Part shown: in pieces, positions 4,230 through 15,484 of the stretch | Numbering within the stretch: position 1 is the stretch's first letter | Layout of the letters: each line of letters starts with the position of its first letter | Assembly: GCA_947311745.1 (NCBI GenBank) | Contig: CAMZLT010000163.1 | Span: 1-34,300 of the forward strand | From: an uncultured Flavobacteriaceae bacterium | GTDB lineage: Bacteria > Bacteroidota > Bacteroidia > Flavobacteriales > Flavobacteriaceae | Reading direction: 5' to 3' | DNA: 34,300 bases | Made by a program: the position numbers and the translations under genes | The notes under the pieces: model-generated | What the model saw: only the letters and a program-made list of their open reading frames with translations | The model's database searches: none | What the model was told of the DNA's origin: nothing

Positions 4230-4940
4230 TTACTGTAATATAGTTTTTCCTTGAATTTGATTTTCGGAAATAAAACCATAATATCTTGAATCTCTAGAAT
4301 GATGTCTATTATCTCCTAGAACAAAATAATAATTTTGTTTAAAAAAATACTGCTTGTTTAATATATCTATAGAATCTAAATTTTTACTTTCTATATTTAA
4401 AATTATAGATTTGTATATGTTATAATTATTTTTGTTTATAACTATAGATTTTCCTTTTTTCGGAATCCATATTGGACCAAAATTATCTAAAGTCCAATTA
4501 GTATTTTTTATTTTTTGCTTAGAAATTATTTTTTTAAAATTAAAATTTTTAGAATTTTTTAATTCTAAATTTGAAATGTTTTTGATCATATTAAGATTGC
4601 TTATGGTATCAAAAAAAGTATAATCAAAAGTTAAATTAGGTAAATCATTAATGACTTTATCATTAATATAAATTTTTGTGTTTTTTATTTGTAAAACATC
4701 ATTAGGTAAGCCTATAATTCTTTTTATAATATCTGTTTTTTTATTACTTGAATTTAAGAAAATAATAATATCATTTCTTTTAAAATTTGCTGTTACTTTA
4801 TTAATAAAAACCAAATCGTTTACATATAGTGTGTTTTGCATTGATTTTGAAGATACCATATAAAAACCAATAAATATATTTTTTATTATAATCAATAAAA
4901 AAAGAAAAAACACCACATATTTAAGCAGTTTTGACACCAA
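4230..4940 (-). CDS. Signal peptidase I (S26 family), short paralog, last gene of the peptide operon
   Basis: 236 aa. It has an N-terminal TM anchor, a Ser box (SKSMQNTL), a Lys box (KRIIGLPND) and box E (GDNRHHSRDSRYYGFI). The only starts that keep the TM anchor are TTG (4938-4940) or GTG (4935-4937), directly abutting the TAA of the upstream gene (4941-4943). Confidence 0.85.
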   Translation of the reverse strand: MVSKLLKYVVFFLFLLIIIKNIFIGFYMVSSKSMQNTLYVNDLVFINKVTANFKRNDIIIFLNSSNKKTDIIKRIIGLPNDVLQIKNTKIYINDKVINDLPNLTFDYTFFDTISNLNMIKNISNLELKNSKNFNFKKIISKQKIKNTNWTLDNFGPIWIPKKGKSIVINKNNYNIYKSIILNIESKNLDSIDILNKQYFFKQNYYFVLGDNRHHSRDSRYYGFISENQIQGKTILQ

Positions 4941-5822
4941 TTAATTACTAACTATTAATATTCGTACTCTTTGGTCTAAAGGATTAACTTTTTTTGTGTT
5001 AGATATTGGTTTATATCCTTGACCTTCATAAGAAAGTTGCTTTGCATCGATACCACGATCAATTAAATAATCATAAACGTACTTTGCTCTTAATGTTGAT
5101 AATTTTATAAAATAATTTTTATAAAATTTAGCAAGTTTATGTTTTGTAACAGAAATTTTTCTTGCACCAACGAAACCAATTAATTTAATTTTTATGTTTT
5201 TATCGTATTTTAAGCTATAAAAAAGATGATTTAGATATTGTTTAGATTTTTGAATAATAACGATTTGCCCTTGATTAAATAAAATATCTTCTAAATAATC
5301 CCCTTTTTTTTTCGTTTCAAAAAGATTTTTCCATTTGTTTACAATTTTTACAACTTTATTATTTTCACTTTTTTTATTTATTGTTAAATCCAATTGCTTC
5401 TTTTTTTTTGTAAAAGACTTTAATTTGATTGTTACATTTCGGTTTTGTTTTCTTTTGAAATTGATATTTTTCTTATCTAATATTGGGACTTTGCCAATAT
5501 CAAACCTACTAATTTCTATTTTTTTATTTGTATATTTTTTTATTAATTTAATGATATATTCATTCCGATTTTTTGCTAAATTTTTGTTGTATTTTTCACT
5601 TCCTATATCATCGCAAAAAGCATAAACACTAATAGAATCTTTATTGTTTATATTTGATATAAATTTAATCAAATTTGCTTTTTCGTTACTATTAATATTA
5701 CTTTTATTATATTCAAAATATACTTTTAAAGTAGTTTCAGTTTGACTAAATGTTAAATTAATTGTCAATATTAACAATCCTAATATCTTATATGCTGTTT
5801 TGTAAATATTTTTTTGCATCAT
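4941..5822 (-). CDS. Secreted protein with two OmpA_C-like (peptidoglycan-binding) domains
   Basis: 293 aa with signal peptide ..LTFS|QTE. Domain 1: VYFEYNKS...VYAFCDDIGSEKYNKNLAKNRNEYI. Domain 2: GFVGA...LSTLRAKYVYDYLIDRGIDAKQLSYEGQGY...NPLDQRVRILI. It overlaps the upstream gene by 35 nt. Confidence 0.7.
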   Translation of the reverse strand: MMQKNIYKTAYKILGLLILTINLTFSQTETTLKVYFEYNKSNINSNEKANLIKFISNINNKDSISVYAFCDDIGSEKYNKNLAKNRNEYIIKLIKKYTNKKIEISRFDIGKVPILDKKNINFKRKQNRNVTIKLKSFTKKKKQLDLTINKKSENNKVVKIVNKWKNLFETKKKGDYLEDILFNQGQIVIIQKSKQYLNHLFYSLKYDKNIKIKLIGFVGARKISVTKHKLAKFYKNYFIKLSTLRAKYVYDYLIDRGIDAKQLSYEGQGYKPISNTKKVNPLDQRVRILIVSN

Positions 5823-6267
5823 TTATTTTTAAATCATTTACTTTTAAATAAAAATTAACTTTTCCGTTTTTAATATGTAATAATAACGGCTTACTCACAC
5901 CTGATTTATACTTATAAATTGTAGAGTTTAGATCATATATTTTAGGAATATTCAAATTATCAATTTGATTTTTAAATCTAGAGTTATGACTCATTCCGAC
6001 TATAATAAGTAGTATGTTTTTTTTGGGGTTAAGCGACTGCAACATTTTTAACTCAAGATTTGTTCCATTGCAACTAACACATTCATTTACTGGTAAAAAA
6101 TAAAAAACTCTGTTTTTTTCATTACTTAATTCAATATTAAATTCCTTTTTTAAATATTTCTCAATTCCTTTTATGTGTTTATACTCCTTTTTTTCATTAC
6201 ATGAAGTTACGAAAAGAATATTAATTATCAACAATAATAGTACCTTCTCTAATATTATTTTTTTCAT
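5788..6267 (-). CDS. Thioredoxin-fold lipoprotein with CxxC motif (putative thiol-disulfide oxidoreductase)
   Basis: 159 aa. Lipobox is FVTS|C (Cys23). The fold order fits a TlpA/DsbE-like layout: beta-strand VFYFLP, then C63-V-S-C66 (nt 6070-6081) at a helix N-terminus, later SKP-LLLHIKNGKV (cis-Pro plus beta-strand). It overlaps the upstream gene by 47 nt. Confidence 0.6.
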   Translation of the reverse strand: MKKIILEKVLLLLIINILFVTSCNEKKEYKHIKGIEKYLKKEFNIELSNEKNRVFYFLPVNECVSCNGTNLELKMLQSLNPKKNILLIIVGMSHNSRFKNQIDNLNIPKIYDLNSTIYKYKSGVSKPLLLHIKNGKVNFYLKVNDLKINDAKKYLQNSI

Positions 6268-6688
6268 TTTTTTCTTTTAATCCTTTTTTTATTTTAATTA
6301 TAAGTTTATAATTATAAACACCTTTTTCTTTAAAAATATAACTACCATATTTTTTATTATAAAGAGGAATACTATGAATTACCATTCCTGATTCTAAGTT
6401 TATAGGATAAATTCTATTAAAATTTACCAAAGTGTTATTAATGTATAAAAACCAAGACCATTTTTTTCTATTTGCAGCAATATTACCTTTGTTTCCTATT
6501 GCTATTTTTGGAATAATTCGTTGTCCAACTTTTGCAATAGAATCTATTTCTATTTTATGTACATATAAATCTACATACTTAATTTTTGTATTAATTATTA
6601 CTTCGTCTAAATCTATACGTTCCGTTTTAAATTGTGAATATACTTTACTATTTAACAAAAAAAATACTATAAATATTAATCTAAACAT
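6221..6688 (-). CDS. Secreted CARDB-like beta-sandwich protein
   Basis: 155 aa with signal peptide ..KVYS|QFK. The pattern DLYVHKIEI....VGQRI.PKIAIGNKGNIAA....WSWFLYINNTLV......L.SG........F.EKGVYNYKLII fits the CARDB/Ig-like repeat logic. Its start lies 1 nt after the upstream stop. Confidence 0.5.
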   Translation of the reverse strand: MFRLIFIVFFLLNSKVYSQFKTERIDLDEVIINTKIKYVDLYVHKIEIDSIAKVGQRIIPKIAIGNKGNIAANRKKWSWFLYINNTLVNFNRIYPINLESGMVIHSIPLYNKKYGSYIFKEKGVYNYKLIIKIKKGLKEKNEKNNIREGTIIVDN

Positions 6689-6689
6689 A

Positions 6690-7913
6690 TTAATTAATTT
6701 TTTTTATTTTATAAACGTACTTTAAACTAAAATATTTTTTATTATCATCGAAATTAGTATGTTGATTAGAAAACATAAAAAAACCATCCGAAGTAGGAAC
6801 CAATTTATTGTACATATGATAAGGAAATAAATATTCGCCAACATAATTGAAATTTTTATCAAAAAAAATTAATATAGCATCTTTTTCGAATATATCATTG
6901 TATAATTCATTTTCGTTTAATGCTAATTGTCTGTCTAAATATAATCTTGAATAAAGTTTTACTTTAGTGTGATAAAAAAAATCACTATAATATGGTGTAG
7001 ATAAATACATTTCCTTATTTTTTTCTACATCTGTAGAATAAATAGGTTTCATAGGTAGATTAATTTTTTTTGAATATTTACACATTGCTTTAAACTCTCC
7101 TCCAAACTTGTTATGAATATAATAATATATTTTATGGTTTACTTTATAATTAACAAAAATTGTATCACCAACAAAAATTAAATTTTTATAGGATAAATAA
7201 TTATTTCCAAAAGTATAATCTCCTTTATATCTGTACATTCCTTCTTGCTTTCCGAAAAATTCTTTCCAATTATTATTATAGATGTCAAACACTCCAATTG
7301 TTGAAGTGTTCTTAAAGCCTTTTAATAAATGAGAATCAAAAGGTTCAATGCCCAAATAAATAGAACTATCAATTTTGTTATAATATAAATTATTAAAATC
7401 AACATTAAAATTAACATCATTAAACCCTTCCGTATTAGTTCTATTATTAAAAAAACTATTTTCTGTTTTAAATAGTATTTTATTTAGTTTACTTTCTTTT
7501 ACAATTTTATTTTCATTAATATTTATAAGAAATATTTTTGTAGGAAAATCTTGTGCAACGACTAAAGTGCTGTCGTTTATAAAATCAAAAGATTTGATAT
7601 TACCATTTACTTTATTTGGTAATTCAATTTTAGAAATTAATGCTTTATTTGTATTTAACAAAGCCATTTTATTAGATTTATAAATATAATAAAACAAAGA
7701 ATCGTTAATTAGTTTATGAACATATGACGAAATTGGTAAGCCTTTTGAATTAGCAAAAATACTATCTGTTAATTTTAAAGTATATATATTTTTCTTTGCT
7801 TTTAATAACAAAACATCAGACTTTATATTATTGTTTACAATATATTCTGAATCTAGTTTGTTCTTTTTACAAGAAAAACTAATCATAATAATTAAATAAA
7901 TTATTTTTTTCAT
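6690..7913 (-). CDS. Large lipoprotein, DUF4221 / 6-bladed beta-propeller-like (function unknown)
   Basis: The ORF is open to a GTG at 7940. The ATG at 7911-7913 gives a canonical lipoprotein leader, MKKIIYLIIMISFS|C. The ~400-aa Asn/Tyr/Phe-rich beta-type sequence has recurring hydrophobic-strand/turn periodicity (..ILIFFDKNFNYVGEY.., ..TSDGFFMF..). This resembles Bacteroidetes propeller lipoproteins. The gene itself is solid; the family is a guess. Confidence 0.55.
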   Translation of the reverse strand: MKKIIYLIIMISFSCKKNKLDSEYIVNNNIKSDVLLLKAKKNIYTLKLTDSIFANSKGLPISSYVHKLINDSLFYYIYKSNKMALLNTNKALISKIELPNKVNGNIKSFDFINDSTLVVAQDFPTKIFLININENKIVKESKLNKILFKTENSFFNNRTNTEGFNDVNFNVDFNNLYYNKIDSSIYLGIEPFDSHLLKGFKNTSTIGVFDIYNNNWKEFFGKQEGMYRYKGDYTFGNNYLSYKNLIFVGDTIFVNYKVNHKIYYYIHNKFGGEFKAMCKYSKKINLPMKPIYSTDVEKNKEMYLSTPYYSDFFYHTKVKLYSRLYLDRQLALNENELYNDIFEKDAILIFFDKNFNYVGEYLFPYHMYNKLVPTSDGFFMFSNQHTNFDDNKKYFSLKYVYKIKKIN

Positions 7914-7918
7914 AAATT

Positions 7919-7950
7919 TTATATCCATGCGTGTTATCACATGGATATAA
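7919..7950 (-). promoter_or_regulatory. Intercistronic stem-loop between the peptide gene and the downstream genes
   Basis: Perfect inverted repeat ATATCCATG (7921-7929) / CATGGATAT (7940-7948) with a 10-nt loop, extendable by two A-T pairs to 7919-7950. It sits 7 nt after the peptide stop and 6 nt before the lipoprotein ATG. On the RNA it is followed by AAAAUUU, not a clean U-tract. Confidence 0.5.
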
Positions 7951-7956
7951 GTTTAA

Positions 7957-8172
7957 TTAATATGCAGACACACCTGTACATGCATTGTAAGATCCATTAG
8001 TTCCAATGCATTGATCGTTCCACCAAGTTCCATGACATGAATACCAACAACCTCCGTCATTAGTCCAAGTTCCTGTGTGGCGATTAAAATCCCATCCTGC
8101 TTCAACTTTTTTCGGTTTTAAAGCATAAAGTGTTACAACAATTACTGCTAATAAAAATAATTTTTTTTTCAT
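7957..8172 (-). CDS. 71-aa precursor of a Cys/Trp/Gly-rich secreted peptide (first gene of the operon)
   Basis: ATG start. Leader is MKKK-LFLLAVIVVTLYAL-KPKKVEA. The predicted 46-aa C-terminal part is GWDFNRHTGTWTNDGGCWYSCHGTWWNDQCIGTNGSYNACTGVSAY, with 4 Cys, 5 Trp, 8 Gly and no Lys, Leu, Glu, Met or Pro. Line 7981-8040 hand-counts at 24/60 G+C, against 8-17/60 in neighbouring operon lines. Confidence 0.7.
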   Translation of the reverse strand: MKKKLFLLAVIVVTLYALKPKKVEAGWDFNRHTGTWTNDGGCWYSCHGTWWNDQCIGTNGSYNACTGVSAY

Positions 8173-8235
8173 TTTTTAAAAGTTTTAATTAGTTAATAAA
8201 TATTTATGGTGCTAATATATAAATAATTTTTAAAT

Positions 8236-8251
8236 AACACAAATATGTGTT
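8236..8251. promoter_or_regulatory. Candidate operator palindrome in the divergent XRE/peptide-operon intergenic region
   Basis: AACACA-AATA-TGTGTT is a perfect 6-4-6 inverted repeat. On the minus strand it contains CATATTTG (8240-8247), a 7/8 match to the Bacteroidetes -7 box TAnnTTTG, about 68 nt upstream of the peptide ATG. Confidence 0.4.
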
Positions 8252-8278
8252 TATATTATATTCAAATAATACTCATTT

Positions 8279-8515
8279 TTGAAAGTGCTTGAAAATGAAG
8301 AAATACAATTTATTCAAAATTTTGGTAAACGATTAAGAAAGATTAGAATTGAGAAAAATTTGTCTCAAGAAAATTTAGCAAATGATGCTGATATACCTAT
8401 AAATCAAGTTGGCAGAATTGAACGAGCAGAAATTTTTACTTCGTTAAAAACCATATATAGATTATCTAAAGCATTAAACATAGAAATAATAGAATTATTC
8501 AGAGAACAAGTTTAA
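8279..8515 (+). CDS. XRE-family helix-turn-helix transcriptional regulator
   Basis: 78 aa with an HTH_3 pattern (FGKRLRKIRIEKNLSQENLANDADIPINQVGRIERAE....LKTIYRLSKALN). There is no in-frame ATG, so the start must be TTG 8279 or GTG 8285. Its 3' end overlaps the convergent dxs 3' end by 21 nt. Confidence 0.7.
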   Translation: MKVLENEEIQFIQNFGKRLRKIRIEKNLSQENLANDADIPINQVGRIERAEIFTSLKTIYRLSKALNIEIIELFREQV

Positions 8516-10288
8516 AATAATCCTCTCAATAGATTTCATATCCAAACCAACTATTTTTTGTAGTTCGGAAATGCTTCCGTGTTCTATAAAAATATCAGGA
8601 ACTCCGATGCGTTTTACACGAATATTATGATACGTGTTTTCCTGTAAAAATTCTAAAATTGCGGTTCCAAATCCGTTAGTAATACTTCCGTCTTCAATGG
8701 TAATAATAGTATTAAAATTTTTAGCAATTTTATGCAACAAAACTTCATCTAAAGGTTTTACAAACTGCATATCTGAATGAAAAACAGCCTTTTTAAACGG
8801 TTTTTCTTTACATATTTCAATAATGGTATTGGTTGTAATTCCGATAGTTAAAACAGCTATTTTATTTCCTTTATTTAATACTTTTGCTTTACCAATTTCT
8901 ATTTTAGAAAATGTATTTGTTTTATTTTCTTCACTAACACGACCACGAGGATATCGTATAGCAATTGGTAAGTTTAAACCAAGTTGAGCTGTGTATAAAA
9001 TATTTCGTAAATCGGAAGCATTTGTCGGAGCATAAATAATTAAATTAGGTATTAAACGCAGATAGGATATATCAAAAACACCATGATGTGTTGCACCATC
9101 TTCACCAACCAAACCAGCTCTATCCACACAAAAAATAACTGGTAATTTTTGCAAAGCAACATCGTGAATAATTTGATCGTAAGCACGTTGTAAAAAAGTA
9201 GAATATATTGTACAAAACGGAATAAATCCTTGTGTTGCCATTCCTGCTGAAAGCGTTACAGCATGTTGTTCGGCAATACCAACATCAAAAGCTCTGTTGG
9301 GAAATTCGGCAATCATATATTTTAACGAACTACCTGTTGGCATTGCTGGTGTTATACCAATAATTTTTTTATTTTTTCGTGCTAAAGCAACAAGAGTCAA
9401 ACCAAAAATATCTTGAAATTTTAAAGGTAAATTCAAGTTATTTACTATTCTATCACCAGAAATTTTATTAAATTTACCAGGAGCGTGATAAGTAATTTGA
9501 TTTTCTTCCGCTTGACGTAAACCTTTTCCTTTTGTAGTAATTACATGTAAAAATTTTGGTCCTTTTATGGTTTTTAACCGTTCTAATTCGCGAATAATTT
9601 TTGGTAAATCATGTCCGTCAATCGGACCAGAATAATCAAAATTTAATGCCTCAAAAATATTGAAATCACATTTTTTAGTGTCTTTTTTTATATGGGTTAA
9701 ATATTCTTTTAAAGCACCAACGTTTGGGTCGATTCCCATTTCGTTATCATTAAGAATAATTAAAATATTGGTATTGGTAACACCTGCGTGATTTAGACCT
9801 TCAAAAGCCATTCCACTTGCAATACTAGCATCGCCAATTACAGCAATATGTTGTTTCTCTGTTTCACCTTTTAACTGCGAAGCAATTGCCATTCCTAAAA
9901 CTGCCGAAATAGAGGTAGAAGAGTGTCCAACACCAAAAGCATCGTAAATACTTTCATTTCTTTTAGGAAAACCAGCAATACCATGTAATTGTCTATTTGT
10001 ATGAAAAATAGCCTTTCTACCAGTTAAAATTTTATGACCATACGCTTGGTGTCCAACATCCCAAACCAATAAATCCTTTGGTGTATCAAACACATAATGC
10101 AAAGCAATAGTCAGTTCTACAACACCTAAACTAGCACCAAGATGACCTTCTTTAGTTGCCACAATATCAATAATAAATTCGCGCAATTCTTTTGCAAGTA
10201 TTGGTAAATTTCTTATCGGAATTTTTTTTAGATCCTTAGGATATTGTATTTGTTCTAATATACTTTTTTTCACACAGCGAAAGTACAA
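8495..10288 (-). CDS. dxs: 1-deoxy-D-xylulose-5-phosphate synthase
   Basis: 597 aa with the TPP-enzyme signatures GHLGASLGVVEL, DVGHQAYGHKILTGR and IGDASIASGMAFEGLNHAG, plus a transketolase-like C-terminus. The track start is TTG at 10288; GTG at 10273 is an alternative. Confidence 0.95.
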   Translation of the reverse strand: MYFRCVKKSILEQIQYPKDLKKIPIRNLPILAKELREFIIDIVATKEGHLGASLGVVELTIALHYVFDTPKDLLVWDVGHQAYGHKILTGRKAIFHTNRQLHGIAGFPKRNESIYDAFGVGHSSTSISAVLGMAIASQLKGETEKQHIAVIGDASIASGMAFEGLNHAGVTNTNILIILNDNEMGIDPNVGALKEYLTHIKKDTKKCDFNIFEALNFDYSGPIDGHDLPKIIRELERLKTIKGPKFLHVITTKGKGLRQAEENQITYHAPGKFNKISGDRIVNNLNLPLKFQDIFGLTLVALARKNKKIIGITPAMPTGSSLKYMIAEFPNRAFDVGIAEQHAVTLSAGMATQGFIPFCTIYSTFLQRAYDQIIHDVALQKLPVIFCVDRAGLVGEDGATHHGVFDISYLRLIPNLIIYAPTNASDLRNILYTAQLGLNLPIAIRYPRGRVSEENKTNTFSKIEIGKAKVLNKGNKIAVLTIGITTNTIIEICKEKPFKKAVFHSDMQFVKPLDEVLLHKIAKNFNTIITIEDGSITNGFGTAILEFLQENTYHNIRVKRIGVPDIFIEHGSISELQKIVGLDMKSIERIILNLFSE

Positions 10289-10336: not shown

Positions 10337-11119
10337 ATGAATACAAATCCGATAGGTTTTTTTGATTCTGGAATTGGCGGAATTTCCATTTGGAAAAAAG
10401 TAACCACTCTTTTACCAAATGAAAACACTATATATCTTGCAGATAGCAAAAATGCTCCTTACGGACAAAAATCCAAGCAACAAATTATAGATTTAAGTTG
10501 TAAAAACACCGAATTATTACTACAAAAAGGAGCAAAAATAATTGTAGTAGCCTGTAATACAGCAACTACAAATGCAATTGGTTATTTACGAAAAAAATAC
10601 AATGTTCCGTTTATAGGTATAGAACCTGCAATAAAACCAGCAGCTCTACAATCTAAAACTAAAAAAATAGGTATTCTTGCTACAAAAGGTACGTTAAATA
10701 GTAGTTTATTTTCCGAAAAAGTATTGCAATATTCGGATATTGAAATTTTAGAGCAAATTGGTGAAGGACTTGTTCCGTTAATAGAAAATGGTAATATTAA
10801 TTCCGCAGAATTAACTAATTTATTACATAATTATTTAGATAATTTACTGCAAAAAAATATTGATTATTTAGTTTTGGGTTGTAGTCATTATCCGTTTTTA
10901 TGGCAAAAAATTGAAAACTACATTGGCAAAAAAATTAAAATAATTGATTCAGGTGAGGCTGTTGCACGACAAACTAAAGCCATTTTATCAAAGTACAATT
11001 TATTAAATTTAACGAACAAAAAAAGTACCCATAAATTATATAGCAATACAAATACTTCCGTTTTAAAAATGTTTGTAAAAAATTGTAAAAATGTAGTAGT
11101 GGATAAGTTGGAATTTTAA
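10337..11119 (+). CDS. murI: Glutamate racemase
   Basis: 260 aa with FFDSGIGGISI, ADSKNAPYG, VVACNTAT and LGCSHYP, covering both catalytic Cys motifs. Confidence 0.95.
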   Translation: MNTNPIGFFDSGIGGISIWKKVTTLLPNENTIYLADSKNAPYGQKSKQQIIDLSCKNTELLLQKGAKIIVVACNTATTNAIGYLRKKYNVPFIGIEPAIKPAALQSKTKKIGILATKGTLNSSLFSEKVLQYSDIEILEQIGEGLVPLIENGNINSAELTNLLHNYLDNLLQKNIDYLVLGCSHYPFLWQKIENYIGKKIKIIDSGEAVARQTKAILSKYNLLNLTNKKSTHKLYSNTNTSVLKMFVKNCKNVVVDKLEF

Positions 11120-11160
11120 GGTTGTGAGAAATGGTTTTTTATTTTGAAATAAAAACAAAA

Positions 11161-11190
11161 ATCGCAACATATAACAGTTGCGATTTTTTT
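11161..11190. terminator. Bidirectional intrinsic terminator between murI and tRNA-Leu
   Basis: ATCGCAAC (11161-11168) / GTTGCGAT (11177-11184) forms an 8-bp stem. It is followed by TTTTTT on the plus strand and TTTTGTTTTT on the minus strand. Confidence 0.65.
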
Positions 11191-11191
11191 G

Positions 11192-11273
11192 TACTCGAGG
11201 TGGGAATCGAACCCACACTCCCGAAAGAACTGGATTTTGAATCCAGCGCGTCTACCAATTCCGCCACTCGAGC
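11192..11273 (-). tRNA. tRNA-Leu (anticodon CAA)
   Basis: The reverse complement reads GCTCGAG-TG-GCGGAATTGGTAGACGC-G-CTGGA-TTCAAAA-TCCAG-(long variable arm TTCTTTCGGGAGTG)-GTGGGTTCGATTCCCAC-CTCGAGT-A. It has a class II long variable arm and no encoded CCA. The 1:72 pair reads G.U in my folding. Confidence 0.9.
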
Positions 11274-11390
11274 ATTTTTATGCGACTGCAAATATAAAAA
11301 TATAATTGCAAAAAATGCGTTATTATGAAAAATTCACTACTATATTTTTTTCGTAAACGTACAAGAATAAAAAAAACAAAAAAATAATTG

Positions 11391-11417
11391 TTTGCTAAAA
11401 ATAAAAGTTTAGTTTTG
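11391..11417 (+). promoter_or_regulatory. Bacteroidetes-type promoter for the aromatic amino-acid operon leader
   Basis: A perfect -7 box TAGTTTTG (TAnnTTTG) lies at 11410-11417, 20 nt before the leader ATG. A TTTG at 11391-11394 (or TTG at 11388-11390) could serve as the -33 element. Confidence 0.5.
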
Positions 11418-11436
11418 TATTAGTTTTTAACCAATT

Positions 11437-11523
11437 ATGAAAAATATATTTACATATCCTAACCAGTATTATTTTTATTTCTTTTTTAGAAATAGAACGA
11501 GGTTATTATATGTTATAAATTAA
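11437..11523 (+). CDS. Tyr/Phe-rich leader peptide (28 aa) of a transcription attenuator
   Basis: ATG..TAA translates to MKNIFTYPNQYYFYFFFRNRTRLLYVIN. There are seven consecutive aromatic codons at 11467-11487 (TAT TAT TTT TAT TTC TTT TTT). It lies between a -7 box and a terminator directly upstream of pheA. Confidence 0.6.
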   Translation: MKNIFTYPNQYYFYFFFRNRTRLLYVIN

Positions 11524-11546
11524 ATAAAACAATTATTATTATATAA

Positions 11547-11578
11547 AATCTCGATAGAAATATCGAGATTTTTTTTTT
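11547..11578 (+). terminator. Attenuator terminator immediately upstream of pheA
   Basis: AATCTCGATA-GAAA-TATCGAGATT forms a 10-bp stem and is followed by a run of Ts ending at 11578. The pheA ATG is at 11588. Confidence 0.65.
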
Positions 11579-11587
11579 ACAAAAAAA

Positions 11588-12403
11588 ATGAATATAGCAA
11601 TACAAGGAATTAAAGGAGCATACCACCATATCGTTGCCGAAAACTATTTTGGAAACAATATTATTATAAACGAATGTTTAACTTTTGATGAAATGCCAAA
11701 AAAACTATTATCTAAAAAATCCGATTATTTAGTAATGGCTATTGAAAACTCCATTGCAGGTTCTATTCTTGCAAATTACAAACTAATTGACGAATTTAAT
11801 TTAAAAATAATTGGCGAACAATATTTAACCATTGCACATCAATTAATGGCTTTGCCAAATCAAAAAATTAGTGAAATTACCGAAATTCGCTCGCATCCTA
11901 TGGCAATAAACCAATGTAGAGATTTTTTACGAAAACATCCACATATTAAAGTAATCGAAGATCAAGACACTGCCGTAACAGCAAAAAATATCCGGAATAA
12001 AAAACTAAAAGGTATTGCCGCAATTGCTAGTGTCAAAGCAGCAGAATTATATGATTTAGAAATTATTGCCAAAAACATACAAAGTGTATCAAATAATTTT
12101 ACACGATTCTTTATTCTAAATCAAAATATTAAAAATGAAAAATACAACAAAGCATCTTTAAAATTTATTACCAAACATCAAAAAGGTAGCCTTGCCGAAG
12201 TTTTACAAATTTTTGTTAAAAATGATATTAATTTATCTAAAATACAATCTTTACCAATTGCGGAACAACCTTGGAAATACGCTTTTTTTACAGACATACT
12301 TTTTACCGAAAAAAAACAATTAAAAAATAGTATTCTACAACTTGAAAAAATAGTAGAAACCATAAAAATATTAGGAAAATATAAAAATAATAACACTTTA
12401 TAA
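11588..12403 (+). CDS. pheA: Prephenate dehydratase (with C-terminal ACT domain)
   Basis: 271 aa with IAIQGIKGAYHH, ENSIAGSI and TRFFIL motifs, followed by an ACT-like tail (GSLAEVLQIF..N.INLSKIQSLP). Confidence 0.9.
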   Translation: MNIAIQGIKGAYHHIVAENYFGNNIIINECLTFDEMPKKLLSKKSDYLVMAIENSIAGSILANYKLIDEFNLKIIGEQYLTIAHQLMALPNQKISEITEIRSHPMAINQCRDFLRKHPHIKVIEDQDTAVTAKNIRNKKLKGIAAIASVKAAELYDLEIIAKNIQSVSNNFTRFFILNQNIKNEKYNKASLKFITKHQKGSLAEVLQIFVKNDINLSKIQSLPIAEQPWKYAFFTDILFTEKKQLKNSILQLEKIVETIKILGKYKNNNTL

Positions 12404-12405
12404 CT

Positions 12406-13554
12406 ATGATAATTTCTAAATCTAATAGATTACAAACTGTAACGGAATACTATTTTTCTAATAAACTTAAAGAAATAGATAGGCTAAAAACACAAGGACA
12501 TGCCGTTTTAAATATTGGTATTGGTTCTCCTGATTTGCCACCTCCAAAAGCTGTTTTAGAAACTATTTCAAAAGCAGCCTTACAAGATAATGTACATGCG
12601 TACCAAAGTTATCAAGGTACACCAGAATTGCGAAATGCTATTCAGAAATTTTATCAAAAAAACTACGATACAGCATTACATGCAGATACTGAAATTTTAC
12701 CATTAATGGGGTCTAAAGAAGGAATTATGCTAATTTCTTTGGCTTTTTTAAACCAAGGAGACGCCGTTTTGATTCCAAATCCTGGATATCCTACCTACAC
12801 TTCGGCAACGAAATTAGTACAAGCAAAACCTATTTTTTACAAACTTAGCCAAGAAAATAATTGGTTTCCTGATTTAAAAGAATTAGAAAAAGAAAATTTA
12901 GAAAACGTAAAAATAATGTGGTTAAATTATCCTAATATGCCAACAGGGAAATTAGCTACAAAAAAGTTATTTACAGAGTTAATTTCCTTTGCCAAAAAAC
13001 ATAAAATTCTTTTAGTAAACGATAATCCATATAGTTTTATTCTAAACAAAAAACCAATGAGTATTTTAACTGTTCCAGATGCAAAATCTGTTGCGATAGA
13101 ATTAAATTCACTCAGTAAATCTTTTAATATTTCTGGTTGGCGAGTAGGGATGGCTTTAGGTAAAAAAGAATATTTAAAAGCAATATTACAAGTTAAAAGC
13201 AATATGGATTCTGGTATGTTTTACGGCATTCAAAAAGGTGCAATTACCGCTTTAAATTTAGATACTGATTGGTTTGAAAAACTAAATGAAACATATCGTT
13301 TTAGAAGAAAAATTGTGTGGAAAATTCTAGATAAATTAAACTGTACCTATTCAAAAAATAGCGTTGGTTTATTTGTTTGGGCAAAATTACCAAAAAATAA
13401 AAAAGCCATTGAATTTACCGATGATTTGCTCCAAAATAAAAAAGTGTTTATAACACCAGGGACTGTTTTTGGCACAAATGGAGAAGGATACATTAGAGTG
13501 TCTTTGTGTGCTTCTGAAAATATGCTAACCGAAATTTTAAATCGTTTAAATTAA
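12406..13554 (+). CDS. Class I/II PLP-dependent aminotransferase (likely aromatic/prephenate aminotransferase of the operon)
   Basis: 382 aa with GYPTY, NYPNMPTG and the PLP-lysine motif SLSKSFNISGWRVG. It starts 3 nt after pheA. Confidence 0.85.
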   Translation: MIISKSNRLQTVTEYYFSNKLKEIDRLKTQGHAVLNIGIGSPDLPPPKAVLETISKAALQDNVHAYQSYQGTPELRNAIQKFYQKNYDTALHADTEILPLMGSKEGIMLISLAFLNQGDAVLIPNPGYPTYTSATKLVQAKPIFYKLSQENNWFPDLKELEKENLENVKIMWLNYPNMPTGKLATKKLFTELISFAKKHKILLVNDNPYSFILNKKPMSILTVPDAKSVAIELNSLSKSFNISGWRVGMALGKKEYLKAILQVKSNMDSGMFYGIQKGAITALNLDTDWFEKLNETYRFRRKIVWKILDKLNCTYSKNSVGLFVWAKLPKNKKAIEFTDDLLQNKKVFITPGTVFGTNGEGYIRVSLCASENMLTEILNRLN

Positions 13555-13559
13555 TACAC

Positions 13560-14411
13560 ATGAAAATAGCAATAATTGGCTTGGGATTAATTGGTGGTTC
13601 GTTTGCTTTGGAACTGAAAAAAAATCATGAAATTTTCGGAATAGATTCAAATAAAAAACACCAAGAACAGGCTTTGCAGTTAAATTTAGTCGATAAAATA
13701 ATCGATATAGAAAAAATACATAAAATGGATGCCATACTTATTGCAATACCTGTAGATAAAACTGCAACTATTCTAAAAAAAGTTTTAGATTTGATTTTAG
13801 AAAACACAGTAGTTTTTGATGTCGGTTCAACCAAAGAAATAATATGTAATGCTGTTAAAAATCATCCGAAAAGAAAAAATTTTATAGCTATGCACCCTAT
13901 CGCAGGAACCGAACATTCAGGGCCAAAAGCAGCAATAAAAAATCTGTTTAAAAATAAAGTAAATATCATTTGCGAAAAACAATATAGTTGCGAAGTACTA
14001 CATAAAAAAGTATTAAAAATAATAGAACCTTTACAAATGCGAACCGTTTATATTCCTTCTGCAAAAATGCATGACAAACACATTGCATATGTTTCGCATT
14101 TATCCCACATTAGTGCTTTTATGTTAGGAAAAACGGTTTTAGAAATAGAAAAAGAGGAAAAAAATATTTTTGATATGGCAGGAAGTGGATTTGAATCTAC
14201 TGTTAGACTTGCTAAAAGTTCACCAAAAACATGGACACCAATTTTTATGCAAAACAAAAAATATATTTTACAATCTTTAGACGAATATATTCAAAATTTA
14301 AAAACCTTTAGGCAATATATTCAAAATCAAGAGGAAAACAACATTTATAAAATAATGGAAAAATCAAATAACATCAAAAAAATATTAAACGGAAAATTTA
14401 AAAATAATTAA
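13560..14411 (+). CDS. tyrA: Prephenate dehydrogenase
   Basis: 283 aa with a Rossmann N-terminus (KIAIIGLGLIGGSFA), DVGSTK, HPIAGTEHSG and SHLSH motifs. Confidence 0.9.
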   Translation: MKIAIIGLGLIGGSFALELKKNHEIFGIDSNKKHQEQALQLNLVDKIIDIEKIHKMDAILIAIPVDKTATILKKVLDLILENTVVFDVGSTKEIICNAVKNHPKRKNFIAMHPIAGTEHSGPKAAIKNLFKNKVNIICEKQYSCEVLHKKVLKIIEPLQMRTVYIPSAKMHDKHIAYVSHLSHISAFMLGKTVLEIEKEEKNIFDMAGSGFESTVRLAKSSPKTWTPIFMQNKKYILQSLDEYIQNLKTFRQYIQNQEENNIYKIMEKSNNIKKILNGKFKNN

Positions 14412-14413
14412 TT

Positions 14414-15484
14414 ATGATTGAAAATAAAAATTGGTTACAAAAAATGGAATTAAACCATCCGTTAGTAATCGCAGGACCTTGTAGTGCCGAAACTGAAGAG
14501 CAAGTTTTAGATATTGCAAACCAATTAAAAAAAACCGATGCTACTGTTTTTAGAGCGGGTATTTGGAAGCCAAGAACAAGACCTGGTAATTTTGAAGGAT
14601 TAGGAGCTATTGCTTTACCTTGGTTAAAACGTGTTAAAGACGAAACAGGTTTACTAACCTCTATTGAAGTTGCAAATGCAAATCATGCAAAACTTGCTTT
14701 AGAATTTGACGTGGATATTTTATGGATTGGTGCAAGAACTACTGTAAACCCTTTTGCAGTTCAAGAAATTGCTGACGCTTTAAAAGATACTGATAAAATA
14801 GTATTGGTTAAAAACCCTATTAATCCTGATTTAGAATTGTGGATTGGTGCTATTGAACGCCTTCAAAAAGCAAATATTAAAAATATAGGAGCAATTCATC
14901 GTGGTTTTTCTACGTATCGAAAATCTACATATCGAAATAATCCAAAATGGCAAATTCCTATTGATTTCAAAAACCGATTACCTGAAATACCGCTAATCTG
15001 TGATCCATCGCATATTTGTGGCGAAAGAGAAGGGATTATAGATGTATCGCAAACAGCATTAGACTTACAATTTGATGGTTTAATGATCGAAACACATAAT
15101 GATCCTGATAAAGCTTGGAGTGATGCAAAACAACAAATTACACCAAATAGGTTGCAAGAAATAATTACCGATTTACGTATACGAAAAAAAGATTTTGGCA
15201 ATAACGATTTGGATAAATTACGAAAACAAATTGATTTAATTGACGATAAAATTTTAGATATTTTAAATGCTAGAATGGAAGTTGTTAAAAAAATAGGCTC
15301 TAAAAAGAAAAAAGACAATGTAGCTGTTTATCAGCAAGATAGGTGGAGAGAAATTATTCAAAAATCTATAGATAAAGGAACAAATTTAGGCTTAAGCATT
15401 AATTTTGTCGAAAAAATATATAAATCTATTCATCAAGAATCTATAAACCAACAAGAAAAAATAATTAACCTCAAAAATTCATAA
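14414..15484 (+). CDS. Bifunctional 3-deoxy-7-phosphoheptulonate (DAHP) synthase type I-beta / chorismate mutase (AroQ)
   Basis: 356 aa. The N-terminal part is a KDO8PS-like DAHPS (PLVIAGPCSAE, FRAGIWKPRT, DPSH, GLMIETH). The C-terminal ~90 aa is an AroQ chorismate mutase (LRKQIDLIDDKILDILNARMEVVKKIG). Confidence 0.9.
   Translation: MIENKNWLQKMELNHPLVIAGPCSAETEEQVLDIANQLKKTDATVFRAGIWKPRTRPGNFEGLGAIALPWLKRVKDETGLLTSIEVANANHAKLALEFDVDILWIGARTTVNPFAVQEIADALKDTDKIVLVKNPINPDLELWIGAIERLQKANIKNIGAIHRGFSTYRKSTYRNNPKWQIPIDFKNRLPEIPLICDPSHICGEREGIIDVSQTALDLQFDGLMIETHNDPDKAWSDAKQQITPNRLQEIITDLRIRKKDFGNNDLDKLRKQIDLIDDKILDILNARMEVVKKIGSKKKKDNVAVYQQDRWREIIQKSIDKGTNLGLSINFVEKIYKSIHQESINQQEKIINLKNS

Follow-up and report, generated by a model that had tools for sequence, protein, structure and literature searches.

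A Rare and Apparently Mobile Envelope Operon of Flavobacteriaceae That Joins a Small Sec-Type Peptide to a DUF4221 Propeller Lipoprotein and a Signal Peptidase of Its Own

Introduction

What might be accomplished by an operon in which the gene for a small cysteine-containing peptide is packed together with genes for envelope proteins and for a signal peptidase? The question was raised by a stretch of DNA of 34,300 nucleotides (nt) from an uncultured Flavobacteriaceae bacterium (contig CAMZLT010000163.1 of assembly GCA_947311745.1), denoted here as the window. Within it, the table of open reading frames (ORFs) and the sequence place six close-packed minus-strand ORFs between positions 4230 and 8172, opposite a plus-strand gene encoding an XRE-type helix-turn-helix (HTH) regulator. 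Read from the first gene of the operon onward, the six products are a precursor peptide, a β-propeller lipoprotein, a secreted protein reminiscent of CARDB domains, a CxxC lipoprotein, a tandem OmpA-like protein and a signal peptidase I of the S26 family. The initial annotation of the window, made from the letters alone, had proposed a single, co-conserved and envelope-targeted operon, headed by a genuine peptide gene and facing an XRE gene specific to it, and this proposal is supported by the recurrence of the same arrangement in other loci. The seven-gene cassette, which occurs in marine flavobacteria, is real, conserved and rare, and no description of it, or of the three-gene core that will be described below, was found. 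As to what the cassette does, the reading that we favor, with a probability of roughly one in two, is that of an XRE-controlled mobile envelope operon that would produce a small ribosomal peptide and handle it in the periplasm, through a pathway that we infer.

A Gene Set Conserved in Different Genomic Neighborhoods

The evidence that carries this reading begins with the distribution of the genes. The initial annotation had anticipated that, if this were a system, at least four of the six operon genes would be conserved together elsewhere, and this was indeed the case in a metagenomic contig (L002), in Tenacibaculum finnmarkense (L003-L007) and in a metagenome-assembled genome (MAG) represented by two contigs (L013 and L009); it was partly so in L001 and L008 (Table 1). 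Across at least four or five lineages other than that of the window, the amino acid (aa) identity to the window genes ranged from 33 to 75%. The flanks are different in each case: in the window they are the plug gene of the T9SS (type IX secretion system) as well as dxs, in L002 genes for an M1 peptidase and an AMP-binding enzyme, in T. finnmarkense dnaK, in L008 der and in L001 an alpha-2-macroglobulin gene. Because the same genes recur in other lineages and in differing genomic contexts, the arrangement is not attributable to chance.

Homologs are very rare. The peptide search yielded one and the lipoprotein search three, and among 185,579 species-representative genomes the cassette was present in T. 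finnmarkense only. Two scans of metagenome contigs, seeded with the CARDB-like and the CxxC proteins, and one scan of viral contigs returned no loci, and a tblastn search of the propeller against plasmids and phages returned nothing. In three loci, the GC content of the cassette lies 5-8 points under that of its flanks (21% for the cassette of the window, against 28.5% in the rest of the window), and neither direct repeats nor a tRNA were detected at the borders of the island. Judged from sequence, the cassette is a mobile chromosomal island.

More distant loci, whose propellers (L014, L015 and L016-L018) share 30-36% identity with that of the window, keep a smaller set, and the S26, OmpA, CARDB-like and XRE genes are missing from L015 and L016. 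What all of these loci retain is the peptide, a propeller of the DUF4221 family and the CxxC lipoprotein, and the conserved unit is therefore that triad. The comparison indicates that the S26, CARDB-like, tandem OmpA and XRE genes were gained on top of the triad by the clade to which the window belongs and are accessory genes confined to this narrow clade.

Table 1. Gene content of the loci related to the cassette of the window.
Locus	Source	Genes
L002	JGI metagenome	XRE, peptide, propeller, CARDB-like, CxxC, OmpA, S26, in the order of the window
L003-L007	T. finnmarkense	all six operon genes; without XRE
L013	MAG GCA_054018295.1	XRE, peptide, propeller, start of OmpA
L009	MAG GCA_054018295.1	end of OmpA, CARDB-like, CxxC, S26
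L001		XRE, peptide, start of lipoprotein; contig end
L008		CxxC, S26
L014		small Cys-pair peptide, propeller, CxxC lipoprotein; OmpA upstream
L015	(GC 37.5%)	Trp-rich Cys-pair peptide, propeller, CxxC lipoprotein; no S26, OmpA, CARDB-like or XRE on 17 kb
L016, L017, L018	three samples	77-aa peptide, Pfam-recognized DUF4221 propeller, CxxC lipoprotein

The Peptide Family

The peptide of the window gave no Pfam match at E values up to 1 and belongs to no NCBIfam family. Its ORF is kept in frame, with conserved motifs, in eight lineages, and its homologs occupy the first position of the operon in L001, L002, L013 and the T. finnmarkense locus L005, with more distant versions in L014, L015 and L016. 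The precursors are 64-91 aa long and start with Sec-type leaders of 25-34 aa that end in V-x-A; in all versions the N-terminus is basic and a hydrophobic core is present, with a Kyte-Doolittle mean of 2.2-3.1 over the best 12 residues. Leaders of the narrow clade end in KP[K/E]KV[E/D/Q]A and the mature part starts with [G/R/P]WDF[N/D]RxTGTW, with C-[H/R/K]-G-[S/T]-W-W-x3-C-I-G-T further on. Three features, namely the leader end, a TGxW motif and a Cys pair, are common to the family in six lineages, in which the pair is spaced as C-x8-C and located at mature positions 20-22 and 29-31. The predicted mature peptides comprise 35-60 aa (46 aa, rich in Trp and Gly, in the window), are 17-24% aromatic, contain about 40% Gly, Asn, Ser and Thr, and are mostly anionic. 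The calculated monoisotopic mass of the reduced window peptide is 5148.06 Da, from which one disulfide would subtract 2.02 Da and two 4.03 Da; for the peptide of T. finnmarkense genomovar ulcerans, 4180.87 Da is predicted on the assumption of cleavage after GVA. Across loci, the identity of the peptides is 44-60%, compared with 39-47% for the propeller.

These comparisons changed the initial picture of the peptide in two respects. It had been described as a four-Cys molecule locked by two disulfides; the four cysteines are present in the window peptide, but the two extra ones are not conserved, and what the family has in common is a single C-x8-C loop. A connection with the small NVEALA leader peptides, which had also been considered, is not supported, as the peptide gave no match to PF14055 and the propeller belongs to DUF4221.

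A further piece of information came from T. finnmarkense. In four of its loci (L003, 9814-9996; L004, 258-398; L006, approximately 2100-2300; and L007), the peptide gene carries one shared frameshift, situated inside the signal peptide near a short A-run, whereas in genomovar ulcerans TNO010 (L005, peptide at 9545-9763) the peptide gene, and all six genes with it, are intact. A disrupted peptide gene beside conserved neighbors had been named at the outset as an observation that would speak against a system; it occurs in this sublineage of T. finnmarkense and not in genomovar ulcerans. Loss of the peptide with conservation of the other genes resembles the loss of a toxin with retention of its immunity; alternatively, it could be a recent neutral lesion. 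No literature dealing with T. finnmarkense and signal peptidase was found.

The Propeller Lipoprotein as a Member of DUF4221

The 407-aa lipoprotein encoded by the second gene is too divergent for the PF13970 model, and it gave neither a Pfam match at E values up to 1 nor an NCBIfam match. Its nature was revealed by its relatives. An exhaustive profile search recovered 201 cluster representatives, nearly all of them of 370-415 aa, and 71 of 120 relatives from this search matched PF13970 (DUF4221), a group for which NCBIfam holds no model. When these 120 sequences were aligned and used for modeling with AlphaFold (AF2), the lipoprotein was predicted with a pLDDT of 94.5 and a pTM of 0.91 (an alignment of four sequences had given a pLDDT of only 42), and the modeled strands formed six four-stranded sheets. 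The top Foldseek match of the model was 3s9j (E 9e-16), the crystal structure of the DUF4221 protein BVU_1028 of Bacteroides vulgatus, followed by generic propellers. On the strength of the profile search, of this model and of its fold match, the lipoprotein is established as a divergent six-bladed β-propeller of the DUF4221 family, and the original propeller call is upheld. Profiles built for the lipoprotein and for the CARDB-like and CxxC proteins gave no meaningful match when searched against PDB sequences.

DUF4221 has no assigned function, and no literature on it was found. The alignment of 120 relatives contains one invariant Arg (R323 in the window protein, within a Y-S-R-x-Y motif) and a Gly conserved in at least 90% of the members (G377), and both are candidate functional residues of the family. 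The location of the protein could also be predicted. Lipoproteins of Bacteroidota are exported to the surface by an acidic lipoprotein export signal (LES), C-X-K-(D/E)2 or SDDFE (PMC5080379), and this signal was found in none of 16 propeller or CxxC lipoproteins across loci; both lipoprotein families are therefore predicted to lie on the periplasmic side. Together with the OmpA_C protein, the whole machinery would thus be predicted to be periplasmic.

A Signal Peptidase Confined to the Cassette

The sixth product was identified from its sequence as, unambiguously, a P-type Ser-Lys signal peptidase I. It scored 114.2 bits with PF10502 (cut-off 22.9) and 115.3 bits with TIGR02227 (cut-off 47), its orthologs conserve the boxes SKSM, KRIIGLPND and GDNRHHSRDSR as well as a hydrophobic N-terminus, and its closest sequence matches in the PDB are structures of bacterial signal peptidase I. 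The initial annotation had considered this enzyme as the cassette's own. In agreement with this notion, only some six clusters scored higher than 276 bits in a profile search, each adjoining cassette genes, and the next score, 176 bits, already belonged to the longer, generic S26 enzymes of Bacteroidota; the enzyme thus belongs to a cassette-specific clade rather than to a generic lepB.

The junction between leader and mature peptide follows the same distribution. The KPxKVxA leader end, whose predicted V-x-A↓ site has Trp as its P2' residue, occurs exactly in the loci that carry S26. L015 and L016, for which no S26 is present on the available sequence, have leaders ending in DANA↓AE and ANSA↓GE, that is, with Glu at P2'. 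Leader junction and the presumably private S26 appear to co-vary in this handful of loci, although this falls short of proof. A rationale can be borrowed from Bacillus subtilis, since E. coli LepB acts poorly on substrates with an aromatic P2', which has been put forward as the reason for the dedicated peptidase SipW of TasA (PMC10269814). Transferring this logic to the cassette, as we do here by inference, a private S26 would be required because the P2' Trp together with a basic c-region makes the leader a poor substrate for the housekeeping LepB.

The CxxC, CARDB-like and OmpA-like Proteins

The CxxC lipoprotein is present in every locus carrying a propeller, and two motifs, NEC-x-x-C and K-P-L-L-x-H, are invariant in its seven orthologs. 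When its profile was compared by hhalign with TrxA, two thioredoxins, a redoxin and a five-sequence Trx profile, it aligned colinearly, its two motifs falling on the CGPC motif and on the cis-Pro strand in TrxA and in the redoxin, yet with E values of 0.01-0.14 and probabilities below 4%, which are not significant; a single ortholog matched Redoxin at E 0.012. The 155-aa protein and three of its orthologs match the full length of PF07705 (CARDB) at 15.2-20.1 bits (15.7 for the window), under the cut-off of 22.7. This protein, which shares 49-64% identity across loci and contains no conserved set of Cys or His ligands, is found only in loci that bear S26, and in three of the four orthologs its P2' residue is Phe or Tyr; it may be a second substrate of the private peptidase. 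The 293-aa protein matches PF00691 over two stretches and gives NCBIfam matches of the Pal/YiaD type, with weak matches to PorE and Pal; a D-x-x-G-x-x-x-Y-N-x-x-L-A-x-x-R motif is readable in its first OmpA domain, and its gene occupies a different place in the operon of the MAG (L013/L009) and in L014. Overall, the profiles and the model of the lipoprotein bore out the S26, OmpA_C, HTH and propeller assignments of the initial annotation, whereas its CARDB assignment lies under threshold and its thioredoxin fold is unproven.

The XRE Regulator and Its Candidate Operator

The XRE proteins are 74-78 aa long and consist of the HTH only, with no TPR or other sensor domain. L001, L002 and L013 each encode an ortholog 69-75% identical to that of the window and placed divergently just as there, and none exists in T. 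finnmarkense. The intergenic region between the XRE and peptide genes contains a perfect palindrome (Table 2), and the pattern AACACATAT[A/T]TGTGTT recurs at the corresponding site in L001, L002 and L013, while the other 15 fetched loci lack it. The palindrome has thus been kept in all four XRE-bearing loci, although the peptides encoded there are only 52-60% identical, and it is likely, as judged by this conservation, to be the XRE operator. At the other end of the XRE gene, its 3' end (plus strand) and that of dxs (minus strand) overlap convergently by 21 nt (8495-8515), and the right border of the island consequently lies directly against a core gene.

Organization of the Cassette and Its Surroundings

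The coordinates of the genes are collected in Table 2. Two pairs of genes overlap out of frame, by 47 nt (6221-6267) and 35 nt (5788-5822), the TAA of the OmpA gene directly abuts the TTG start of the S26 gene (4938-4943), and the gaps that follow the peptide and propeller genes are of 43 nt and 1 nt, respectively; all of these details, as well as the coordinates, had been read correctly from the start and match the ORF table and the sequence. The upstream TTG is supported as the start of S26 because its orthologs retain the same N-terminal membrane segment, and the propeller lipoprotein starts at an ATG at 7913 and has the lipobox ISFS↓C. Within the cassette, no terminator-like sites were found on the minus strand and no Rfam families were detected. 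A sigma-70 scan, with 55 sites against 47 expected, was uninformative, and Bacteroidota promoters deviate from the sigma-70 consensus.

Table 2. Features of the cassette in the window.
Feature	Position	Strand	Basis or remark
XRE-type HTH regulator, 78 aa	8279..8515	+	Pfam HTH_3 39.4 bits; divergent from operon
16-bp perfect palindrome AACACATATTTGTGTT, candidate XRE operator	8236..8251		single occurrence in the window
Precursor peptide, 71 aa, Sec-type leader ending in KPKKVEA	7957..8172	-	homologs hold the same first position
DUF4221-family β-propeller lipoprotein, 407 aa, predicted on the periplasmic side	6690..7913	-	profile search, AF2 model, Foldseek
Secreted 155-aa protein, CARDB-like (Ig-like β-sandwich)	6221..6688	-	PF07705 match under cut-off
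CxxC lipoprotein, 159 aa, possibly thioredoxin-like	5788..6267	-	invariant NEC-x-x-C and KPLL-H motifs
Secreted tandem OmpA_C-like protein, 293 aa	4941..5822	-	Pfam OmpA 57.7 bits, two stretches
P-type signal peptidase I (S26), 236 aa, membrane-anchored	4230..4940	-	PF10502 114 bits, TIGR02227 115 bits

The flanks of the cassette in the window are ordinary housekeeping genes, none of them related to defense. Beside the island lie murI and an operon for aromatic amino acids, made up of pheA, an aminotransferase gene, tyrA and a DAHP synthase/chorismate mutase gene (10337-15484 with murI), and a tRNA-Leu(CAA) is located near the island (11191-11273), not at its border. On the other side, two adjacent ORFs of 186 and 137 aa (1406-2388) match parts of sulfur/selenium transporters of the YedE/TsuA type and represent either a split gene or a pair.

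The related contigs also offered several observations of their own. In L016 (2201-10661), as well as in L017 and L018, the triad is directly followed by genes for a TolB_like lipoprotein and an RND pump (adaptor and ACR_tran genes), and this pump could be the export route of the peptide in that lineage. The sequence upstream of the L014 triad (3-652) encodes the C-terminal end of a further DUF4221-like protein, along with a truncated lipoprotein of 83 aa that has CxC instead of CxxC, and these remnants suggest modules duplicated in tandem. Another contig, L012 (1-4535), encodes a tandem-HTH XRE protein, a redoxin lipoprotein, a 346-aa S26 enzyme, a TolB_like (PF15869) lipoprotein and a membrane CxxC protein, and no small peptide ORF was found on its 4.5 kb. 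This set is an analog whose propeller is of another family, and it hints that the combination of a propeller lipoprotein, a thiol-redox protein and a signal peptidase is a recurring theme. Homology between DUF4221 and the TolB_like lipoprotein of L012 is not demonstrated, as hhalign covered only the N-terminal 84 columns, with a probability of 69%. Finally, in two Bacteroidales MAGs (L010, 6230-8051, and L011), two thioredoxin genes are located directly upstream of a gene for a 298-aa S26 enzyme.

Proposed Mechanism and Alternative Explanations

All these observations can be integrated into a model. An XRE dimer sitting on the palindrome would gate the operon, and the precursor would be exported by Sec and cleaved by the private S26 after KPxKV[E/D/Q]A. 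The CxxC lipoprotein would then close the C-x8-C loop; a thiol oxidoreductase is encoded in bacteroidetocin loci for the reported reason that Bacteroides is without a general machinery for making disulfides (PMC6671954). The propeller lipoprotein would hold the anionic, Trp/Gly-rich peptide at the inner face of the outer membrane and, in the window clade, the OmpA-like protein would tie the assembly to peptidoglycan. The end use of the peptide, which is the least certain step of the model, would most likely be that of a bacteriocin-like or envelope-acting molecule, with the propeller as its chaperone or as self-protection. This use is favored because the island is mobile and patchy, the peptide would contain a disulfide and the peptide gene has been lost at the strain level.

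Several points weigh against this model. The cassette encodes no outer-membrane exporter, so release from the cell is unsupported, and the peptide lacks a T9SS C-terminal domain. The anionic mature peptides differ in charge from most membrane-active bacteriocins. In L013 (562-789), a Pro occupies the predicted P1' position (KVQA↓PWDF), and a Pro at P1' normally blocks signal peptidase I; either the cleavage site would be elsewhere or the private S26 would tolerate Pro. The link between S26 and the P2' Trp is based on four or five loci against two, with the contigs of L001 and L014 coming to an end. The assignment of the 159-aa lipoprotein to the thioredoxins is made at the level of motifs and is not statistically supported, and the β-sandwich fold of the 155-aa protein, while likely, is not established. 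In addition, the frameshifted sublineage of T. finnmarkense retains the rest of the operon, and those genes could act without the peptide.

The explanation that best survives besides this one is that the peptide is never released and instead resides, as a stable small subunit or as a ligand, in a complex of the propeller within the periplasm, which would serve as an envelope scaffold, sensor or enzyme. Precedents would be TolB-Pal and PorE, as well as methylamine dehydrogenase. The missing export route and the anionic charge keep this explanation alive. All components are predicted to be periplasmic, the peptide, propeller and CxxC genes are strictly adjacent in distant lineages, and the peptide evolves no faster than its neighbors, as indicated by the identities given above. 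The TolB propeller binds TolB-box peptides that contain Trp, which the anionic, Trp/Gly-rich peptides resemble, and the weak PorE and Pal matches of the OmpA part would fit such a complex. However, no partner of the MauG, cytochrome or cupredoxin type is encoded, the CARDB-like protein offers no conserved ligand set, and both this protein and OmpA are dispensable in L015 and L016. Moreover, a rare, mobile and AT-rich island with strain-level inactivation better fits an accessory competitive trait than a housekeeping complex of the envelope. We regard a resident subunit as unlikely, while deserving to be kept in mind.

A secreted signaling peptide that feeds back on the divergent XRE, in a manner similar to quorum sensing, would account for a regulator whose conserved candidate operator is shared with the promoter region of the peptide, and pairs of small peptides and XRE proteins are known from the Gram-positive RRNPP systems. 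This is nevertheless improbable, because an XRE protein of 74-78 aa has no TPR or sensor domain with which to perceive a peptide, no importer is encoded, the peptide module exists without XRE in T. finnmarkense, L015 and L016, and the propeller, OmpA and CARDB-like proteins would be left unexplained.

We attach very little weight to the idea of a matrix or fiber like that of tapA-sipW-tasA, with a polymerizing subunit that would be freed by the private peptidase and anchored by the OmpA-like protein. The presence of a private signal peptidase I with its presumptive cargo under an XRE-family regulator does parallel SipW and TasA under SinR (PMC10269814), the P2' residue is aromatic as in TasA, and Gly, Asn, Thr and aromatic residues are abundant in the peptide. 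However, S26 is of the P-type Ser-Lys class, with a KR box, and not of the endoplasmic reticulum (ER)/archaeal type of SipW, the cargo is merely 35-60 aa long and contains a disulfide loop, neither an usher nor another secretion component is encoded that would take it across the outer membrane, and the lipoproteins are predicted to face the periplasm. A similarly slight chance is given to an envelope-level anti-phage or superinfection-exclusion island governed by an XRE "control protein". The mobile, AT-rich and patchy nature of the island would suit it, and the XRE resembles the control proteins of PADLOC (46 bits); however, PADLOC matches nothing else than this generic HTH, the propeller has no phage or plasmid homologs and the flanks are housekeeping genes. 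Least credible of all is the absence of any system, that is, a housekeeping lepB beside unrelated envelope genes and a spurious small ORF, since, even if AT-rich DNA yields many spurious ORFs and the peptide has no family and one called homolog, the gene set is conserved in differing neighborhoods, the peptide ORF stays in frame with its motifs in eight lineages, the S26 clade is confined to cassette loci and a cassette found in one of 185,579 species representatives does not contain the general flavobacterial LepB.

Returning to the model of a peptide produced and handled in the periplasm, a broader proposal can be offered tentatively, with more doubt than conviction. DUF4221 propellers may be the dedicated partners of an unrecognized class of Sec-routed, Trp-rich peptides with a single disulfide loop, which a CxxC lipoprotein encoded with them would mature; within one sub-clade, a mobile one, the P2'-Trp junction would have co-evolved with a P-type signal peptidase I of its own, and the product would be a new periplasm-assembled peptide of antagonistic or envelope-acting nature.

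If this proposal were true, it would provide the first functional context for DUF4221, a family that has a solved structure and forms about 200 clusters at 50% identity, as well as a new peptide family mostly missed by gene callers. It would also represent the first SipW-like private-peptidase logic in a diderm, with an enzyme of the bacterial type, and the pairing of S26 with the P2'-Trp junction would constitute a natural experiment in signal-peptidase specificity, in a context in which LepB is an antibiotic target. Should the peptide be antagonistic, a Sec-dependent route for peptide toxins would exist in Gram-negatives that is unrelated to the export machinery of microcins and bacteroidetocins. 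T. finnmarkense is a fish (salmon) pathogen whose genomovars differ in the intactness of the peptide gene, so the hypothesis can be tested in existing strains.

Comparison with Known Systems

The initial annotation had stated that the cassette matches no known bacteriocin or ribosomally synthesized and post-translationally modified peptide (RiPP) architecture. This statement holds, the absence of ABC/C39, radical SAM and Lan enzymes having been confirmed, and no defense architecture was matched either. With bacteroidetocins, SipW-type peptidases, NVEALA clusters, RRNPP circuits and PADLOC defense systems the cassette has no more than its logic in common. No earlier description of DUF4221 in association with a peptide and a CxxC lipoprotein seems to exist.

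A close parallel in Bacteroidota is offered by the bacteroidetocins (class IIf), in which a small Cys peptide lies beside a gene of the thiol-oxidoreductase type, in a four-gene region with variable flanks (PMC6671954). However, bacteroidetocin loci have a 15-aa GG leader, a C39-ABC exporter and a 5-TM (transmembrane) protein (PMC6671954), all of which are lacking in the cassette and in the related loci. The cassette relies instead on a Sec-type leader, a private S26, a DUF4221 propeller and the OmpA and CARDB-like proteins, and the peptides show no sequence similarity to each other. The counterpart of the thiol oxidoreductase may be the adjacent, conserved CxxC lipoprotein, which has no significant thioredoxin-family match.

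The tapA-sipW-tasA operon of B. subtilis resembles the cassette in its dedicated signal peptidase I encoded with the cargo, its aromatic P2' (PMC10269814) and its regulation by an XRE-family protein (SinR). The differences lie in the enzyme and in the cargo: SipW is of the ER/archaeal type (Ser-His) and the cassette S26 of the P-type Ser-Lys class, and TasA is a fiber protein of about 260 aa in a Gram-positive organism, whereas the cassette produces a disulfide-looped peptide of 35-60 aa in a diderm, together with lipoprotein partners. The Sec-dependent class II bacteriocins of Gram-positive bacteria, such as enterocin P and enterocin Gr17, are likewise small, unmodified Sec peptides that have no GG leader and often contain a disulfide. 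They differ in that they use the housekeeping signal peptidase, are usually cationic, are accompanied by small membrane immunity proteins and have a single membrane to cross.

Other resemblances concern the combination of components. The mau cluster of methylamine dehydrogenase unites a propeller heavy subunit, a small Cys/Trp-rich light subunit and the thioredoxin-like MauD; however, the MauG, amicyanin and cytochromes of that system are lacking in the cassette, and the peptide is about one-third the size of MauA. In TolB-Pal and PorE, a propeller is combined with an OmpA_C peptidoglycan anchor, whereas no sequence relationship to TolB/Pal exists past the generic OmpA_C domain. The RRNPP regulators are composed of HTH and TPR, while the cassette XRE is an HTH alone. 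For the NVEALA clusters, no literature was found, and the peptide has no match to PF14055. Finally, the propeller is akin to DUF4221 (PF13970) in that it has the same fold, can be reached by profile search and belongs, like the members of that family, to the Bacteroidota lipoproteins of about 400 aa.

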